The notes beneath the pieces are model-generated. The model had not been told where the DNA came from, did not search any database, and saw nothing but the letters and a program-made list of their open reading frames with translations. From Lytechinus pictus (lineage: Eukaryota), in NCBI RefSeq assembly GCF_037042905.1, contig NC_087252.1:6016001-6080000 (forward strand): 64,000 nt of DNA, written 5' to 3'. Position 1 is the first letter of the stretch; the number at the start of each line of letters is the position of its first letter. The position numbers and the translations under genes were made by a program. Shown piece after piece: positions 2,471 to 58,571 of the stretch.

Positions 2471-2711
2471 CACTGCAAAAACTCTGGTGTTGATTTAACA
2501 CCAGCCCGGAATCTATATGTCCACACCAGAGAAGTGTTAAACAACACCAGTTTTTGTTTTGGTCCAACACCATATAGGTGTTTATAAAACACCAATTAGT
2601 ATTAAAACAGCATCGGTTTGATTCCAAACTGGTGTTGTATCAATACTTCTCTGGTGTGGACATGTATAGATTCCAGGCTGGTGTTAAATCAACACTGGAG
2701 TTTGTGCAGTG
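2471..2711. mobile_element. Non-autonomous DNA transposon (MITE) with CACTG...CAGTG ends, EnSpm/CACTA-like; copy A
   Basis: Long imperfect TIRs (cactgcaaaaactctggtgttgatttaacaccagc... / ...gctggtgttaaatcaacactggagtttgtgcagtg), TA on both sides, internal aacacc/ggtgtt repeats; related copies at 2847 and 20241. Confidence 0.8.
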
Positions 2712-2846
2712 TAAAGAGATAATACCAAGGCATCCGATATGGGATGACGAAGGAGGAATATTGAAGAAGGGATAAATTATTCATTGCAAACAAAATAATA
2801 ATCATGACAGATATTACAGGAAAATCATAATTAATATATAAAATTA

Positions 2847-3086
2847 CACTGCAAAAAATCCGGTGTGGATTTAACACCAGCCCGGAATCTATATATGTCC
2901 ACACCAAAGAAGTATTGAAACAACACCAGTTTGGAATCAAACCGATGCTGTTTTATTACTAATTGGTGTTGTATCAACACCTTTCTGGTGTTAGACCAAA
3001 ACGAAACTGGTGTTGTTTAACACTTCTCTGGTGTGGACATATAGATTCCGGGCTGGTGTTAAATCAACACCAGAGTTTTTGCAGTG
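2847..3086. mobile_element. Same MITE family, copy B, inverted relative to copy A
   Basis: ta|cactgcaaaaaatccggtg...gagtttttgcagtg|ta; internal segment is the reverse complement of copy A. Confidence 0.8.
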
Positions 3087-19848: not shown

Positions 19849-20240
19849 GTAATAACGGAAAATTGCTACAAGGATTAGATATTACTAGGAGTTTTGGTGT
19901 TTGTTTTGTAAGAATATCATGTAACACATAATTATCTTTGAAGATATACGGCAGTGATCATAAGTTTCATCTAGTTATTTGCTTCGGTACGGGATCTTCA
20001 AAAGATGTATCATGTATCCAATATAATTGTATTATCAGCGTTGGTCTTCATCAAGTTCGTTCCACTTCGATCGTACAAAAATAGATCGAGGCTCACAGCA
20101 TTTAGGTTTAGTTGCAGACGATAGATGGAGAATGTGGGGGGGGGGGACTGGAGATTGGGGTTCTATCAAAGTAAAGGAGGTAATTAGAAAATATTGAGAA
20201 AATAGAGATAGGGTCATGGTGTTCTATATAAGATACCATA

Positions 20241-20625
20241 CACTGCAGAAAAACCGGTGTTGATTTAACACCATCTCGGTATCTAGATTGGTCCACACCA
20301 GAGAGGTGTTTAAACAACACCAGATAAGAATCACACCGATATTGATTTAACACTAATTGGATTTGCTTAAATGCCGAGATGGTGTTAGCCTAACGCCAAA
20401 CCGGTGTTGTTTCAACACCAGAGAATCGGAGAAAACACAAGAGAAGCGTTGAAACAACACCAGTTGAATCAAACCGATATTCGTTTAACACTAATTGGTG
20501 TTGCTTAAATGCCAAATTAGTGTTAGCCTAATTCCAGACTGGTGTTGTTTCAACACCTCTCTGGTGTGGACTGATATATATATATATCAGGCTGGTGTTA
20601 AATTAACACCGGCGTTTTGGCGGTG
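20241..20625. mobile_element. Longer, diverged member of the CACTG MITE family (copy C)
   Basis: ta|cactgcagaaaaaccggtgttgatttaacacc ... ggtgttaaattaacaccggcgttttggcggtg|ta, with an internally duplicated block. Confidence 0.7.
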
Positions 20626-34584: not shown

Positions 34585-34955
34585 GGAGGAGCCGCGGTGT
34601 AGTGGTTCTGACTCTCGCCTTGTAAACAGAGGGTTGTGTGTTCGTATCCCACCGCGGTCTGGCGTCCTTTGGCAAGGCGTTAATCCACACTTTGCCACTC
34701 TCGACCCAGGTGCTAAATGGGTACCCGGTAGGATGTGAAAGTCATTGTAGCTTGTCCAGTACTGTGTGCGCCTCACCGGCGACTGACTGGAATACTCCCC
34801 AGGGAGTGGAGGATGTGCACACATTGTGTGCGGGAATGACTGATTGAATCCGATGACCGGGGTAATAATATATCTGTAAAGCGCTTAGACACGTCGTTCC
34901 GATGTATTAAGCGCTATATAAAAAACGGATTATTATTATATTATATTATTATTAT
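34585..34955 (+). mobile_element. tRNA-derived SINE, full length, with CORE-like centre and L2-like 3' tail
   Basis: tRNA-like head with A-box (cggtgtagtgg) and B-box-like gttcgtatccc; central ctttggcaag...ctcgacccaggtgctaaatgggtac; tail tgtaaagcgcttag...taagcgctatataaa followed by (TTA)n; second copy at 41587-41916. Confidence 0.85.
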
Positions 34956-41586: not shown

Positions 41587-41916
41587 ATAACAATCCGATT
41601 TTATATAGCGCTTTATACATCGGAACAACGTGTCTAAGCGCTTTATAGATATATTATCACCCCGATCATCGGATTCAATCAGTCATTCCCGCACACAATG
41701 TGTGCACATCCTCCACTCCATGGGGAGTATTCTAGTCAGTCGCCGGTGAGGCGCACACAGTGCTGGACAAGCTGCAATGACTTTCACATCCTACCGGGTA
41801 CCAATTTAGCACCCGGGTCGAGAGAGGCAAACTGTGGATTAACGCCTTGCCAAAGGACGCTAGACCGTGGTGGGACCCTCTGTTTACAAGGCGAGAGTCA
41901 GAACCACGGCTCCTCC
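41587..41916 (-). mobile_element. tRNA-derived SINE, second copy, with two internal deletions in the tRNA head
   Basis: Reverse complement aligns with the 34585 copy over its whole length. Confidence 0.85.
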
Positions 41917-53355: not shown

Positions 53356-53361
53356 TATTCT
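53356..53361 (+). repeat. Left target-site duplication TATTCT
   Basis: Identical 6-mer immediately after the right end, at 58566-58571. Confidence 0.9.
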
Positions 53362-53497
53362 AGTAGTTATAGGATAGACCTCATACCAATTTGACCTTTG
53401 AGTGACCTTTGACCCCAACTTCCGGTCACTGTTGACCCCGTGACCCCACCTTCCGGTCAATCATGACCTTTGACCTTTGGGTACGCGGTAAACAGGA

Positions 53498-53758
53498 AAT
53501 TGGATAATGGAGCGCGGGAAGCGATTTTAATTGGATAATGGAGCGCGGGACGCGATTTTAATTGGATAATGAAGCGCGGGACGCGATTTTAATTGGATAA
53601 TGACTCCGCGTGGGGACGCGATTTTAATTGGATAATGACTCCGCGTGGGGACGCGATTTTAATTGGATAATGACTCCGCGTGGGGACGCCATCTTAATTG
53701 GATAATGAAACGCGGGACGCGATTTTAATTGGATAATGAGGGTCGGCGTGGGGACGCC
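53498..53758 (+). repeat. Subterminal tandem array, 8 units of 31-35 bp (AATTGGATAATG-var-GGGACGCGATTTT)
   Basis: Units counted directly; mirrored at 58169-58429. Confidence 0.9.
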
Positions 53759-53819
53759 ACGCTTCAACCCGGAAATGATGGGGGTGAATCTTAAAGAAAG
53801 AGTAAAAAGCAGCGCGTGC

Positions 53820-53855
53820 TATAAAACCCGCCAACTTGGACACCCGGCGCATTCT
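53820..53855 (+). promoter_or_regulatory. Candidate Pol II core promoter (TATAAAA plus Inr-like CATTC), pointing inward
   Basis: TATAAAA at 53820-53826; the A of CATTC lies at 53851, 31 nt downstream; located just after the ATTGG-containing array; mirrored on the - strand at 58072-58107. Confidence 0.5.
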
Positions 53856-53912
53856 GGACCTCGGACTAACCAGAACAGCTCTGCCGCAGGAACACCAATT
53901 TATCTACATGCC

Positions 53913-54131
53913 ATGTTGATAACCGTGTGGATGTTGTTTGCGCTTTGGAGAGAGCCGTACATAGGTTTTGAATTTTGGAGGAACTGGGAGAAAGTGTGGG
54001 AAGCGTATGAAGAGGAAAGGAAGAAAGGTATATTTGCCGGTCCAAAGGTGAATCATGAGTCAAACGCAGTGGAGCACCGAGGACGAAGCCATGCTTCGTC
54101 TCCTTCTGGTGGGAGATCATATTCAAGGTGA
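53913..54131 (+). CDS. Hypothetical 72-aa Trp-rich protein (MLITVWMLFALWREPY...), element-borne
   Basis: gccATG in good context ~60 nt after the predicted TSS; no recognisable domain. Confidence 0.3.
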   Translation: MLITVWMLFALWREPYIGFEFWRNWEKVWEAYEEERKKGIFAGPKVNHESNAVEHRGRSHASSPSGGRSYSR

Positions 54132-54246
54132 AAGCCGGCCCTCTCTGCCTCTTATTACAACAATGATTGGTAATCCAACATGTGATTATAATAGTGACAT
54201 CTCAAGCTCTACTCATTCCAGACTTTTACACATCAAAACTCTTTGA
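54055..54246 (+). CDS. Hypothetical 63-aa protein (MSQTQWSTEDEAMLRLLL...), element-borne
   Basis: ATG-initiated ORF overlapping the previous one; W-x-x-E-D-E-x-x-L start is only loosely like a Myb/SANT first helix. Confidence 0.25.
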   Translation: MSQTQWSTEDEAMLRLLLVGDHIQGESRPSLPLITTMIGNPTCDYNSDISSSTHSRLLHIKTL

Positions 54247-54748
54247 CTTTTTCATACTGTTTTGTTCATACTTTTCATACTTTTCATATTAACTGCCCGG
54301 CTCTCTGACCCGCAAAAGTATACTATATTGAAACCAGTAGATGACTCCTTTAAATCAACTTCATTCATCCGCAGTACATATGGTGATAACATGAAACACT
54401 ATACAGTCAAGGATGATTCTTTATTATTACTATCATTTATTCTATTCCATTTCAATGTAGATAGGTTCAATTAGTGTATAAACAGCAGATTTTGATACAA
54501 AGGTAAAAATAATGTAAGATATGTTCTCAAATTACGTTGTCACAACAAAATAATTAACTGTTCATTGTTAATATTAAAGTGAAGTTCTCGTTTTTTTCTT
54601 TCCCTTCGCTTAACTTATTGGATTGTAACACATGTCTATGGATGGCATTCAGAAAATATGAACACAATGAAGTTCAAACTGTCATTTATGCCCGCATTTA
54701 TGTTGACGGCGTTTTCTTGGATTATTCGACAAGCTGATGTTTGTGCCT

Positions 54749-55399
54749 TTAGTTGTAGGTTCCATCTTCACCCTCCGTTTCTTCTCCACCATCATCATTA
54801 TCGTCATCGTCACCTTGATACTGGAATAAACCATCGAATTGTGAACCATGCCTGGCTAACACTCTCTGTACGGCTTTCCGGAATTCCATGCCATTCTCTA
54901 ATCTTTCCGTGAGATCGGACACGATTTCACGATTGATGTCAGCGTCTTCGAGGTACACGTTCTGCTGCAAGAACTGAGAGTACAGATCGAAAAAGATGCG
55001 TTTGACTGCCCACATTAGTTTCACGTGAGCCTTTGCTTTAGCGTCTTCTTCTTCCATTCCTTCTGAGATGTATTTCTGATATTTTTCGTCTCTCAAGTCC
55101 TTGGTGGCCGTCATGGCTTGCTCTAACCATCCTCGATAAGCGAGGTTGTCTTCAGTTTCTTCCATGTTTGCTGTCATTGACGATTCGTGTCCATCGCTTT
55201 CTGATACGCTCGTTTCGGAATCACCGTTGGATTCTTCAACTCTTTGCATTTGAGAGGATGGGTCGGATTCTTCATCTTCACTCGTTTCTTCTCCAGTATC
55301 ATGCTCAATTTGTTCATGCCTCTGCATGTTATATTTCCTACTAAAAGTTTTATCGCATCGTGAACAAGCGTAACGGTTGGACATATCCAATATATTCAT
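54749..55399 (-). CDS. C2H2 zinc-finger protein, 216 aa (N-terminal finger, acidic linker, helical domain, acidic tail); left copy
   Basis: YACSRCDKTFSRKYNMQRHEQIEH matches C-x2-C-x3-F-x8-H-x4-H; intronless, complex-sequence ORF; first ATG at 55399 (track starts at an upstream TTG, 55447). Confidence 0.8.
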   Translation of the reverse strand: MNILDMSNRYACSRCDKTFSRKYNMQRHEQIEHDTGEETSEDEESDPSSQMQRVEESNGDSETSVSESDGHESSMTANMEETEDNLAYRGWLEQAMTATKDLRDEKYQKYISEGMEEEDAKAKAHVKLMWAVKRIFFDLYSQFLQQNVYLEDADINREIVSDLTERLENGMEFRKAVQRVLARHGSQFDGLFQYQGDDDDNDDGGEETEGEDGTYN

Positions 55400-55490
55400 G
55401 CTGACTCGATGATTATTTGTTGGGAAATGAAGAAAATTAACGTTCAAACTTGTAATTATACGTAATCATGAAACGCGCGCGAAGGTACTT

Positions 55491-55907
55491 TGATTCTTAC
55501 GGATTTTTACGCATTCTTACGGATTCTTACTCATTCTTACGGATTCTTACTCATTCTTACGGATTCTTACGGATGTTTACTCATTCTTACTCATTCTTAC
55601 TCATTCTTACGGATTTTTTACGGATTCTTACGGATGTTTACTCATTCTTACTCATTCTTACTCATTCTTACGGATTTTTTACGGATTCTTACGGATGTTT
55701 ACGGATTCTTACGGATGTTTACGGATTCTTACTCATTCTTACGGATTCTTACTCATTCTTACGGATTCTTACGGATGTTTACGGATTCTTACTCATTCTT
55801 ACTCATTCTTACTCATTCTTACTCATTCTTACGGATTCTTACTCATTCTTACGGATTCTTACGGATTTTTTACGGATTCTTAGGGATGTTTACGGATCCT
55901 TACGGAT
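55491..55907 (+). repeat. 10-bp variant tandem array (ACGGATTCTT / ACTCATTCTT / ACGGATGTTT / 11-bp ACGGATTTTTT), ~41 units
   Basis: Direct reading of sequence. Confidence 0.95.
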
Positions 55908-55950
55908 CCACGTTGGAATGACCCATGCTGTGGGTCATTCTAGCGTGGAT
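55906..55950 (+). other. 20-bp hairpin in the unique centre of the element
   Basis: atccacgttggaatgaccca-tgctg-tgggtcattctagcgtggat: 18 Watson-Crick pairs plus two G:T(U) wobble pairs on the + strand. Confidence 0.75.
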
Positions 55951-55989
55951 GAACATATTTTCCTTGAGATTATATGAAAGCATTGATTA

Positions 55990-56436
55990 ATCCGTAAGGA
56001 TCCGTAAGAATGAGTAAGAATCCGTAAGAATGAGTAAGAATCCGTAAGAATGAGTAAGAATCCGTAAACATCCGTAAGAATCCGTAAAAAATCCGTAAGA
56101 ATGAGTAAGAATGAGTAAGAATGAGTAAGAATGAGTAAGAATCCGTAAACATCCGTAAGAATCCGTAAGAATGAGTAAGAATCCGTAAGAATGAGTAAGA
56201 ATCCGTAAACATCCGTAAGAATCCGTAAACATCCGTAAGAATCCGTAAAAAATCCGTAAGAATGAGTAAGAATGAGTAAGAATGAGTAAACATCCGTAAG
56301 AATCCGTAAAAAATCCGTAAGAATGAGTAAGAATGAGTAAGAATGAGTAAACATCCGTAAGAATCCGTAAGAATGAGTAAGAATCCGTAAGAATGAGTAA
56401 GAATCCGTAAGAATGCGTAAAAATCCGTAAGAATCA
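55990..56436 (-). repeat. 10-bp variant tandem array, right copy, ~44 units
   Basis: Reverse complement of the left array, ~30 bp longer, with a different unit order at its inner end. Confidence 0.95.
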
Positions 56437-56466
56437 AAGTACCTTCGCGCGCGTTTCATGATTACG

Positions 56467-56502
56467 TATAATTACAAGTTTGAACGTTAATTTTCTTCAT
56501 TT
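56467..56502 (+). promoter_or_regulatory. Candidate core promoter of the zinc-finger gene (TATAATTA plus Inr-like TCATTT)
   Basis: TATA-like element at 56467, TCATTT at 56497-56502, ATG at 56528; preceded by ttcgcgcgcg; mirrored at 55425-55460 on the - strand. Confidence 0.4.
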
Positions 56503-56527
56503 CCCAACAAATAATCATCGAGTCAGC

Positions 56528-57178
56528 ATGAATATATTGGATATGTCCAACCGTTACGCTTGTTCACGATGCGATAAAACTTTTAGTAGGAAATATAACA
56601 TGCAGAGGCATGAACAAATTGAGCATGATACTGGAGAAGAAACGAGTGAAGATGAAGAATCCGACCCATCCTCTCAAATGCAAAGAGTTGAAGAATCCAA
56701 CGGTGATTCCGAAACGAGCGTATCAGAAAGCGATGGACACGAATCGTCAATGACAGCAAACATGGAAGAAACTGAAGACAACCTCGCTTATCGAGGATGG
56801 TTAGAGCAAGCCATGACGGCCACCAAGGACTTGAGAGACGAAAAATATCAGAAATACATCTCAGAAGGAATGGAAGAAGAAGACGCTAAAGCAAAGGCTC
56901 ACGTGAAACTAATGTGGGCAGTCAAACGCATCTTTTTCGATCTGTACTCTCAGTTCTTGCAGCAGAACGTGTACCTCGAAGACGCTGACATCAATCGTGA
57001 AATCGTGTCCGATCTCACGGAAAGATTAGAGAATGGCATGGAATTCCGGAAAGCCGTACAGAGAGTGTTAGCCAGGCATGGTTCACAATTCGATGGTTTA
57101 TTCCAGTATCAAGGTGACGATGACGATAATGATGATGGTGGAGAAGAAACGGAGGGTGAAGATGGAACCTACAACTAA
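56528..57178 (+). CDS. C2H2 zinc-finger protein, 216 aa; right copy, identical to the left
   Basis: Identical translation to 54749-55399; AATAAA signals downstream near 57487 and 57502. Confidence 0.8.
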   Translation: MNILDMSNRYACSRCDKTFSRKYNMQRHEQIEHDTGEETSEDEESDPSSQMQRVEESNGDSETSVSESDGHESSMTANMEETEDNLAYRGWLEQAMTATKDLRDEKYQKYISEGMEEEDAKAKAHVKLMWAVKRIFFDLYSQFLQQNVYLEDADINREIVSDLTERLENGMEFRKAVQRVLARHGSQFDGLFQYQGDDDDNDDGGEETEGEDGTYN

Positions 57179-57680
57179 AGGCACAAACATCAGCTTGTCG
57201 AATAATCCAAGAAAACGCCGTCAACATAAATGCGGGCATAAATGACAGTTTGAACTTCATTGTGTTCATATTTTCTGAATGCCATCCATAGACATGTGTT
57301 ACAATCCAATAAGTTAAGCGAAGGGAAAGAAAAAAACGAGAACTTCACTTTAATATTAACAATGAACAGTTAATTATTTTGTTGTGACAACGTAATTTGA
57401 GAACATATCTTACATTATTTTTACCTTTGTATCAAAATCTGCTGTTTATACACTAATTGAACCTATCTACATTGAAATGGAATAGAATAAATGATAGTAA
57501 TAATAAAGAATCATCCTTGACTGTATAGTGTTTCATGTTATCACCATATGTACTGCGGATGAATGAAGTTGATTTAAAGGAGTCATCTACTGGTTTCAAT
57601 ATAGTATACTTTTGCGGGTCAGAGAGCCGGGCAGTTAATATGAAAAGTATGAAAAGTATGAACAAAACAGTATGAAAAAG

Positions 57681-57872
57681 TCAAAGAGTTTTGATGTGTA
57701 AAAGTCTGGAATGAGTAGAGCTTGAGATGTCACTATTATAATCACATGTTGGATTACCAATCATTGTTGTAATAAGAGGCAGAGAGGGCCGGCTTTCACC
57801 TTGAATATGATCTCCCACCAGAAGGAGACGAAGCATGGCTTCGTCCTCGGTGCTCCACTGCGTTTGACTCAT
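57681..57872 (-). CDS. Mirror copy of the 63-aa hypothetical ORF
   Basis: Identical translation in the ORF track. Confidence 0.25.
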   Translation of the reverse strand: MSQTQWSTEDEAMLRLLLVGDHIQGESRPSLPLITTMIGNPTCDYNSDISSSTHSRLLHIKTL

Positions 57873-58014
57873 GATTCACCTTTGGACCGGCAAATATACC
57901 TTTCTTCCTTTCCTCTTCATACGCTTCCCACACTTTCTCCCAGTTCCTCCAAAATTCAAAACCTATGTACGGCTCTCTCCAAAGCGCAAACAACATCCAC
58001 ACGGTTATCAACAT
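57796..58014 (-). CDS. Mirror copy of the 72-aa hypothetical ORF
   Basis: Identical translation in the ORF track. Confidence 0.3.
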   Translation of the reverse strand: MLITVWMLFALWREPYIGFEFWRNWEKVWEAYEEERKKGIFAGPKVNHESNAVEHRGRSHASSPSGGRSYSR

Positions 58015-58168
58015 GGCATGTAGATAAATTGGTGTTCCTGCGGCAGAGCTGTTCTGGTTAGTCCGAGGTCCAGAATGCGCCGGGTGTCCAAGTTGGCGGG
58101 TTTTATAGCACGCGCTGCTTTTTACTCTTTCTTTAAGATTCACCCCCATCATTTCCGGGTTGAAGCGT

Positions 58169-58429
58169 GGCGTCCCCACGCCGACCCTCATTATCCAATT
58201 AAAATCGCGTCCCGCGTTTCATTATCCAATTAAGATGGCGTCCCCACGCGGAGTCATTATCCAATTAAAATCGCGTCCCCACGCGGAGTCATTATCCAAT
58301 TAAAATCGCGTCCCCACGCGGAGTCATTATCCAATTAAAATCGCGTCCCGCGCTTCATTATCCAATTAAAATCGCGTCCCGCGCTCCATTATCCAATTAA
58401 AATCGCTTCCCGCGCTCCATTATCCAATT
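58169..58429 (-). repeat. Subterminal 31-35-bp tandem array, right copy
   Basis: Reverse complement of 53498-53758. Confidence 0.9.
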
Positions 58430-58565
58430 TCCTGTTTACCGCGTACCCAAAGGTCAAAGGTCATGATTGACCGGAAGGTGGGGTCACGGGGTCAACAGTG
58501 ACCGGAAGTTGGGGTCAAAGGTCACTCAAAGGTCAAATTGGTATGAGGTCTATCCTATAACTACT

Positions 58566-58571
58566 TATTCT
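58566..58571 (+). repeat. Right target-site duplication TATTCT
   Basis: Matches 53356-53361. Confidence 0.9.

Follow-up and report, generated by a model that had tools for sequence, protein, structure and literature searches.

Non-autonomous Polintons were reportedly described by Kapitonov and Jurka in 2006, and in Repbase, as Polinton ends without enzymes that are moved in trans and outnumber the autonomous copies, and are said to be internally deleted or filled derivatives. A 64,000-nucleotide stretch of the Lytechinus pictus genome (assembly GCF_037042905.1, contig NC_087252.1, positions 6,016,001 to 6,080,000 of the forward strand; hereafter the window) contains a Polinton-like palindrome of 5,204 bp at 53362-58565. 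It resembles non-autonomous Polintons in having the ends of a gene-complete Polinton (the helper) of the same genome, dispersed copies and duplications of helper length (3 of 3 helpers), and differs from those described above in that its core is foreign to the helper and its ends were re-captured repeatedly. The element is very probably a helper-dependent Polinton satellite with end capture. Barreat and Katzourakis (2021; PMC8097293) give vertebrate Mavericks (Polintons) an (AGT)2//(ACT)2 end motif, a 6-bp duplication, a size of 12.7-24.6 kb and a terminal inverted repeat (TIR) of 46-1,447 bp. The palindrome has the same end motif, a 6-bp duplication and a TIR in common with a canonical 16-17-kb element; unlike an autonomous Polinton, it measures 5,204 bp with arms of 2,476 bp and contains no pPolB, integrase, ATPase, protease or capsid genes. 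PMC3014272 mentions that non-autonomous Polintons are absent in a lizard. Non-autonomous Polintons are a known idea. Among the entries listed by full-text literature searches, judged from the opening of their abstracts, no near-palindromic Polinton derivative with its own gene was described; Repbase/Dfam lay outside this scope, so an earlier description is possible.

Other small parasitic replicons were compared. Phage satellites (phage-inducible chromosomal islands, PICI, and Staphylococcus aureus pathogenicity islands, SaPI) have their own small terminase subunit; the likeness to a satellite gene apparently related to a helper-type packaging apparatus is one of analogy only. Like a viral satellite, the element has a core unrelated to the helper genome, and its dependence on a helper is read from the absent enzymes; unlike a defective-interfering genome, it is not wholly helper-derived. 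Transpovirons (PMC5499653) are likewise small, linear, TIR-bounded DNAs without capsid genes that need a larger DNA virus, but they measure ~7 kb, carry a superfamily 1 (SF1) helicase and ride in mimiviruses, whereas the satellite has no ORF of helicase size or family, is 95% palindrome and has Polinton ends.

Layout of the palindrome and source of its ends

The following features were located (window coordinates, strand in brackets; ORF, open reading frame).

53356..53361 (+): target-site duplication TATTCT, left copy (flank match)
53362..55837 (+): left arm, reverse-complementary to the right arm without mismatch
53362..54109 (+): helper-derived end, left copy, with the AGTAGT terminus, a Polinton TIR-like region and then ~340 bp that the helper has at its polymerase-side end only
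53498..53757 (+): 31-35-bp tandem repeats with an ATTGG core, in common with the helper TIR
53820..54131 (+): helper-derived TATA-like box and, behind it, a 72-codon ORF crossing the capture junction
54110..55491 (-): left copy of the satellite core, comprising a 3' region, the zinc-finger ORF and a short leader, without a match in the long elements
54749..55447 (-): zinc-finger ORF, outward-pointing, 232 amino acids (aa) from TTG or 216 aa from ATG (the start in most homologues)
55492..55907 (+): left tandem array of ~41 10-bp units, rich in ACGGAT, lying upstream of the ORF
55908..55988 (strandless): unique central spacer, ~81 bases, local hairpin
55989..56435 (-): right 10-bp tandem array, ~44 units, inverted
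56090..58565 (-): right arm, exact reverse complement of the left arm
56480..57178 (+): second, identical copy of the ORF, outward-pointing
57486..57507 (+): two AATAAA hexamers ~310 bp past the end of the ORF, possible polyadenylation signals, with mirror counterparts in the left arm
57818..58565 (-): helper-derived end, right copy
58566..58571 (+): target-site duplication TATTCT, right copy (flank match)

The element starts with AGTAGT and finishes with ACTACT, and its arms (2,476 bp by exact reverse complementarity, 2,479 nt by another measure) make up ~95% of its length. A 6-bp flank match would arise by chance at ~4e-4 at the flank composition. The 252 bp separating the exact arms (53362-55837 and 56090-58565) are mostly the unequal inner ends of the two inverted 10-bp arrays. 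The spacer forms a hairpin (z = -8 for 55895-56000), and 14 of the 17 sibling stretches tested contain its core 11-mer. A possible hammerhead in the spacer was dismissed on inspection by eye, and two weak CsrC matches in Rfam, far below threshold, were judged chance. From end to centre, each arm consists of ~400 bp with tandem repeats, the TATA-like box and 72-codon ORF (no Pfam match), a non-coding stretch, the zinc-finger ORF and the 10-bp array. The copy number of the 31-35-bp repeats differs between sibling elements; their ATTGG core is CCAAT-box-like. ORFs overlying the 10-bp arrays were regarded as repeat by-products and not counted as genes. No polymerase, integrase, ATPase, protease or capsid was found among the element's ORFs of at least 60 aa, none of the 36 PF03175 (pPolB) matches in the genome fell at this locus, and genome searches for integrase, ATPase and capsid gave no match here. 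The initial annotation, made from the window alone, had described AGTAGT...ACTACT termini, an exact 6-bp duplication, ~2.5-kb arms over ~95% of the element, ~82 bp of unique centre, one convincing gene per arm and no replication or integration genes, all in agreement with these results.

Searches of the 812-Mb assembly returned three long elements (16.2-17.2 kb) with the same ends, each with its own 6-bp duplication.

G000:C6:1299810-1316732: long element
C17:12792967-12809161: long element
C21:5789358-5806584: long element

The C6 element encodes pPolB (PF03175, E=2e-34), an rve integrase (1e-10), an A32 ATPase (1e-7), a PC4-like protein and a cysteine protease related to pS273R (E=2e-4); for its 445-aa protein, the nearest Atlas clusters carry a double-jelly-roll (DJR)-like family in 14-30% of members. 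It fits the Maverick definition given in PMC8097293. Between the three long elements, integrase, ATPase and capsid proteins share 98-100% identity. Their pPolB frames (L051:1950-6775, L043 and L045) are interrupted, one interruption having GT/AG-like borders; at one interruption and ahead of the main frame the sequence has the look of spliceosomal introns, whereas vertebrate Mavericks are intronless (PMC8097293). The two termini of the C6 element (L050 and L051) differ at positions 9-13 and both variants are present among satellites, pointing to exchange of ends inside the family. The left part of the C17 element is duplicated within it (L052:1968 and L052:5768).

The match between palindrome and helper was limited to arm positions 1-748, where the palindrome follows the polymerase-side end of the helper. 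Identity of the unique part of this end to the three long elements was 98.8, 97.3 and 81.8%. Arm positions 749-2640 gave no BLASTN match in six stretches covering these elements, and ORF-family profiles gave no significant match in the same stretches. Because the zinc-finger gene, arrays and spacer are unmatched in the three long elements, the element was classed as a satellite with its own core and not as a defective-interfering deletion. The initial annotation had proposed a satellite or defective-interfering-like parasite that keeps both origins and a regulatory gene. Its satellite half stands; the deletion half fails on the unmatched core, the gene was not kept from any of the three long elements, and the two ends are two copies of one helper end (polymerase-side), not left plus right.

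Most siblings have their own sub-terminal region between TIR and core, absent from the helper, and their helper-like stretch stops within or near the TIR; in the window copy, the sibling-type region was replaced by helper sequence. In L037 the helper-like stretch reached ~position 504 of the helper left end (134 bases 100% identical). Stop points in the helper right end were 609 (L036), 881 (window), 925 (L040), 1009 (L031) and 1548 (L054). Junction sequences vary from copy to copy, and both arms carry the same captured end in each copy, chimeric L048 excepted.

Duplications made by FB/Galileo and Mutator-like transposons are 7-9 bp in length. The long, internally repetitive arms are a foldback habit and would suit a cut-and-paste transposon of this foldback type (FB/Galileo/Mutator-like), or two head-to-head one-armed elements, that only resembles a Polinton. 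This is scarcely credible here, as the ends agree with Polinton TIRs along 400-750 bp (97-100% identity where the sequence is unique), the helpers likewise have a 6-bp duplication, the centre has neither terminus nor duplication, and the element has no transposase ORF; the Polinton termini named in the initial annotation were upheld.

Copies, arm correction and further lineages

Using the terminal 439 bp as query, at least 62 genome matches were obtained from the best 40 of 153 candidates, and 24 genome stretches were fetched around terminal matches. Sixteen two-ended copies were compared (window included; the nested C7 cluster (L032, L054), one-ended L047 and the long elements were set apart). 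Exact 6-bp duplications were present in 14 of the 16, all different, the others being L038 and L042 (the latter a unit of a tandem array). Two full arms were present in 12 of 16 copies, with sizes of 4.6-6.3 kb; L031, L035, L039 and L046 are deleted or lopsided. These results, together with the three full-length Polintons, matched the expectation in the initial annotation that a search with the terminal sequence would find autonomous elements with the same ends and further copies with different duplications. When the ORF was used as query, the 150 best of 333 candidates gave at least 52 divergent pairs, 2 convergent pairs and 42 singles (~9 of the 52 divergent pairs sit in one C17 tandem array); with a distant query added (best 150 of 277), at least 191 distinct matches and at least 65 divergent pairs were obtained. 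Twelve matches among the 150 scored were identical to the window protein, the window's own two included. Satellites outnumber helpers by >10:1 (at least 52 gene pairs vs 3 long elements). None of the at least 191 gene matches lay <59 kb from any of 20 pPolB or 16 capsid positions. In animals, little testing has been done of how Polintons replicate, have their ends recognised and are packaged; the family is a natural deletion series in which dozens of insertions with varying amounts of helper end define the cis requirements.

Individual copies showed further rearrangements. About 11 palindrome units, L042 among them, stand head-to-tail at G000:C17:8135235-8180127; they could have arisen as a replication concatemer that was integrated, or by local amplification. 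The centre of L038 has an unrelated ~200-bp sequence with its own short inverted ends in place of the usual spacer. L048 (G000:C17:29772646-29778828) is a chimera with arms from two subfamilies and an exact 6-bp duplication; only ~75-90 helper-like bases are present at its right end, which suggests a short minimal end. Three right ends are stacked at the C7 locus (L032:2762-4657).

In 13 of 16 copies the two arms did not differ at all over their first 130 bp, and in two more they differed by one gap; the median number of differences between copies was 5-8. In the core, 36 copy-private variants were present in both arms (9 of 12 copies). The arms are thus corrected against each other, not in every case. 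Because arms are homogenised within each copy, their identity is a poor insertion clock, and dating the insertion from it, as the initial annotation did in calling the insertion very recent, was rejected. Recent activity is better supported by the intact duplications, the 12 identical ORFs and the captured helper pieces of 97-100% identity.

Perfect identity of 2.5-kb arms is also what would be expected from collapse or polishing, and no read bridging both flanks was found among public reads, whose coverage was limited to one arm plus the right flank. Both would fit an assembly artefact, either a collapsed 17-kb Polinton or a fold-back read chimera. Such an origin is very improbable: many loci have their own duplications, sizes, array lengths and junctions, the interior differs from the helper, full-length helpers were assembled elsewhere, and contigs from two independent public runs contain the core at high identity.

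Three further near-total palindromes contain the same gene family: L056 (4,809 bp, ends AGAAGA, duplication GATGCT), L057 (4,666 bp, ends AGCAGC, duplication GACAGA) and L058 (5,069 bp, AGTAGT followed by unrelated sequence, duplication CACACT). Outside the gene region, no shared sequence was detectable between these and the window ends; in the helical domain, the four lineages are 62-87% alike. The genes of L058 are turned inward with the ACGGAT arrays still upstream of them; the array thus goes with the gene, and the axis of symmetry has originated more than once. Sequence of the L056 end is found again 1.9 kb away from another pPolB match, on C2, and five same-strand copies of the L056-type end are present at G000:C2:26726467-26753077. 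A 14.6-kb element on C19 (G000:C19:4647614-4662238; content unread) has both ends 100% identical to those of L058 and gave no pPolB, capsid, ATPase, integrase or zinc-finger match among the matches listed. L058-related ends also bound stretches of 32 kb (C14) and 41 kb (C29).

The zinc-finger gene

The ORF protein consists of a C2H2 finger (E=2e-5, slightly below the Pfam cut-off), an acidic linker, an all-helical domain of ~110 aa and an acidic tail. Modelled alone, the helical domain was all-helical with a mean predicted local distance difference test (pLDDT) score of 94.7. Foldseek gave no BFVD match at E<=0.001 for the whole model or for the helical domain alone; the best hit of a PDB fold search (Z ~7 over 60-70 residues) is uninformative for helical proteins, and a PDB sequence search gave generic zinc fingers only among its best 60 matches. 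No usable match was found for the protein in the ESM Atlas and none in PHROGs. Scans of viral contigs with the gene, the ATPase fusion and the terminal motif found nothing, and a metagenome scan returned one 1.6-kb contig without context. Sixteen homologues were present in protein databases, the nearest named ones from the sea urchin Lytechinus pictus. Contigs of 16.7, 15.0 and 15.7 kb (content unread) carry the three close homologues P0005, P0010 and P0016, respectively. In three Lytechinus pictus gene models (P0002, P0013 and P0015), parts of the ORF are joined to other exons, under the names DMP1-like, sialyltransferase-like and hydroxylysine kinase-like; the copies disturb host gene annotation in this way, three database proteins fusing ORF parts to host enzymes or low-complexity names. 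The ratio of nonsynonymous to synonymous change (pN/pS) between subfamilies was 0.34-0.43, from about 17-24 differences, and suggests modest purifying selection on the ORF.

Among 1.84 billion representatives, a profile found many relatives of 200-250 aa, and also longer proteins with the domain placed after an A32-type ATPase. The helical domain alone scored 46-80 bits on the ATPase-fused proteins, vs <=7 for shuffled controls. A profile built from 14 fused proteins gave 1,257 matches, with the domain behind an ATPase in 116 of the best 120; the named fused proteins in this search were all bivalve, and three Mya gene models continue past the domain into a Polinton-type integrase. In a midpoint-rooted tree of 47 domains, 23 close stand-alone forms, which take in all four lineages of this genome, made up one clade (100/99) among the fused forms. 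The direction of change would be that the stand-alone domain split off from the ATPase. The ATPase of the helper Polinton itself has no helical-domain extension. These results provide a first handle on an unannotated ~110-aa domain that is common in mollusc and echinoderm databases.

The association of this domain with Polintons (fusion to A32 ATPases, and the three Mya models that reach an integrase) would also be expected if the element were a copy-back, defective-interfering-like derivative of an unseen Polinton, its zinc-finger gene a passive terminal accessory and its ends swapped later by ordinary recombination. The 15-17-kb contigs of P0005, P0010 and P0016 and the 14.6-kb C19 element with L058 ends would also suit it. 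This origin is unlikely: a palindromic layout is present in all four lineages (helical domain 62-87% alike), one with genes inward, the ORF frames stay open with pN/pS of ~0.4, the stand-alone forms are a single clade, and no pPolB or capsid position has one of the listed gene matches in its vicinity. The gene may nevertheless be present in some Polinton, since the best 150 of 333 and 150 of 277 gene candidates were scored and one Polinton family was read directly.

The gene had been called regulatory in the initial annotation, which was a guess. Judged from sequence, the sole functional clue is the fusion of the domain to packaging ATPases. A packaging role for the satellite protein is conceivable, with doubt somewhat outweighing belief; the main alternative would be transcriptional self-regulation via the upstream arrays. 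More speculatively, the protein could bind the satellite's own arrays through its finger and engage, or compete with, the helper's packaging machinery.

Proposed mechanism and other repeats

End-motif repeats serve jumping-back initiation in protein-primed linear replicons (PMC8097293). In the panhandle model (PMC11886824), the displaced strand folds, which re-creates an origin and restores end homology. The palindrome resembles snap-back or copy-back genomes and panhandle repair (adenovirus, PRD1; PMC11886824), in which one end is duplicated by fold-back and inverted repeats keep the ends alike. Unlike such genomes, the satellite is integrated and inherited, has its own conserved gene and is found in several lineages, and is not a transient by-product of a single virus. 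Arm homogenisation is the genomic trace that the panhandle model predicts.

Mobilisation in trans by helper proteins, as already suggested in the initial annotation, is probable from the genomic data, because Polinton ends, a 6-bp duplication, a multi-copy family and full-length Polintons with the same ends are all present in the genome. The integrase and protein-primed polymerase of an expressed helper would act on the satellite ends. A DNA that gained one Polinton end by template switch would become two-ended through fold-back. When a near-total palindrome is replicated by strand displacement, the strand set free would fold into a full-length duplex with a ready origin, so that replication could proceed from short self-annealing intermediates and insertion be carried out by the helper integrase. 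A helper end acquired by template switch on one arm would be copied to the other, one event updating both ends. Fold-back end capture would therefore leave two identical versions of one helper end per copy, captured lengths and junctions that differ by copy, and the same gene family behind four unrelated end types.

A wider reading comes near an even chance without reaching it: that these are old, widespread, true polintovirus satellites, ~5-kb linear palindromes with one monophyletic gene split from a packaging-ATPase C-terminus, which switch helpers by fold-back end capture and use their protein and arrays for copying and packaging at the helper's expense. If so, they would be a eukaryotic counterpart of phage satellites, and a satellite gene related to a packaging-ATPase domain would point to particles and a parasite-of-a-parasite layer in animal genomes.

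Several observations weigh against the satellite reading and its mechanism. As assembled, all three long elements lack an uninterrupted pPolB frame, so that the active helper deduced in the initial annotation does not follow. Of ~10 Polinton families in the genome, one was read directly and the others by coordinates only. The ends of L057 and L058 had no adjoining pPolB or capsid match among the end matches listed, and no helper was found for either. Direct evidence for panhandles is lacking according to PMC11886824. Homogenisation is incomplete, because 41 private core variants occur in one arm only (28 of them in L044 and L048) and L044 and L048 have unlike arms; post-insertion conversion or assembly polishing could contribute to arm identity. 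The selection estimate rests on ~23 differences per comparison. RNA is scarce (119 and 44 reads on one arm, at ~8 million records per run); the reads are mostly of sibling-copy origin, with first mates mainly on the plus strand, a bias that is inward and antisense to the gene in most stranded libraries (polarity uncalibrated).

Two other repeats were seen in the window. A 277-bp inverted repeat pair (34647-34923 and 41599-41875; 95%), 6.7 kb apart, is probably another DNA transposon, with no duplication seen at its reported borders. A small repeat resembling a foldback element or miniature inverted-repeat transposable element (MITE), with internal inverted units, occurs twice (2500-3050 and 20239-20557).

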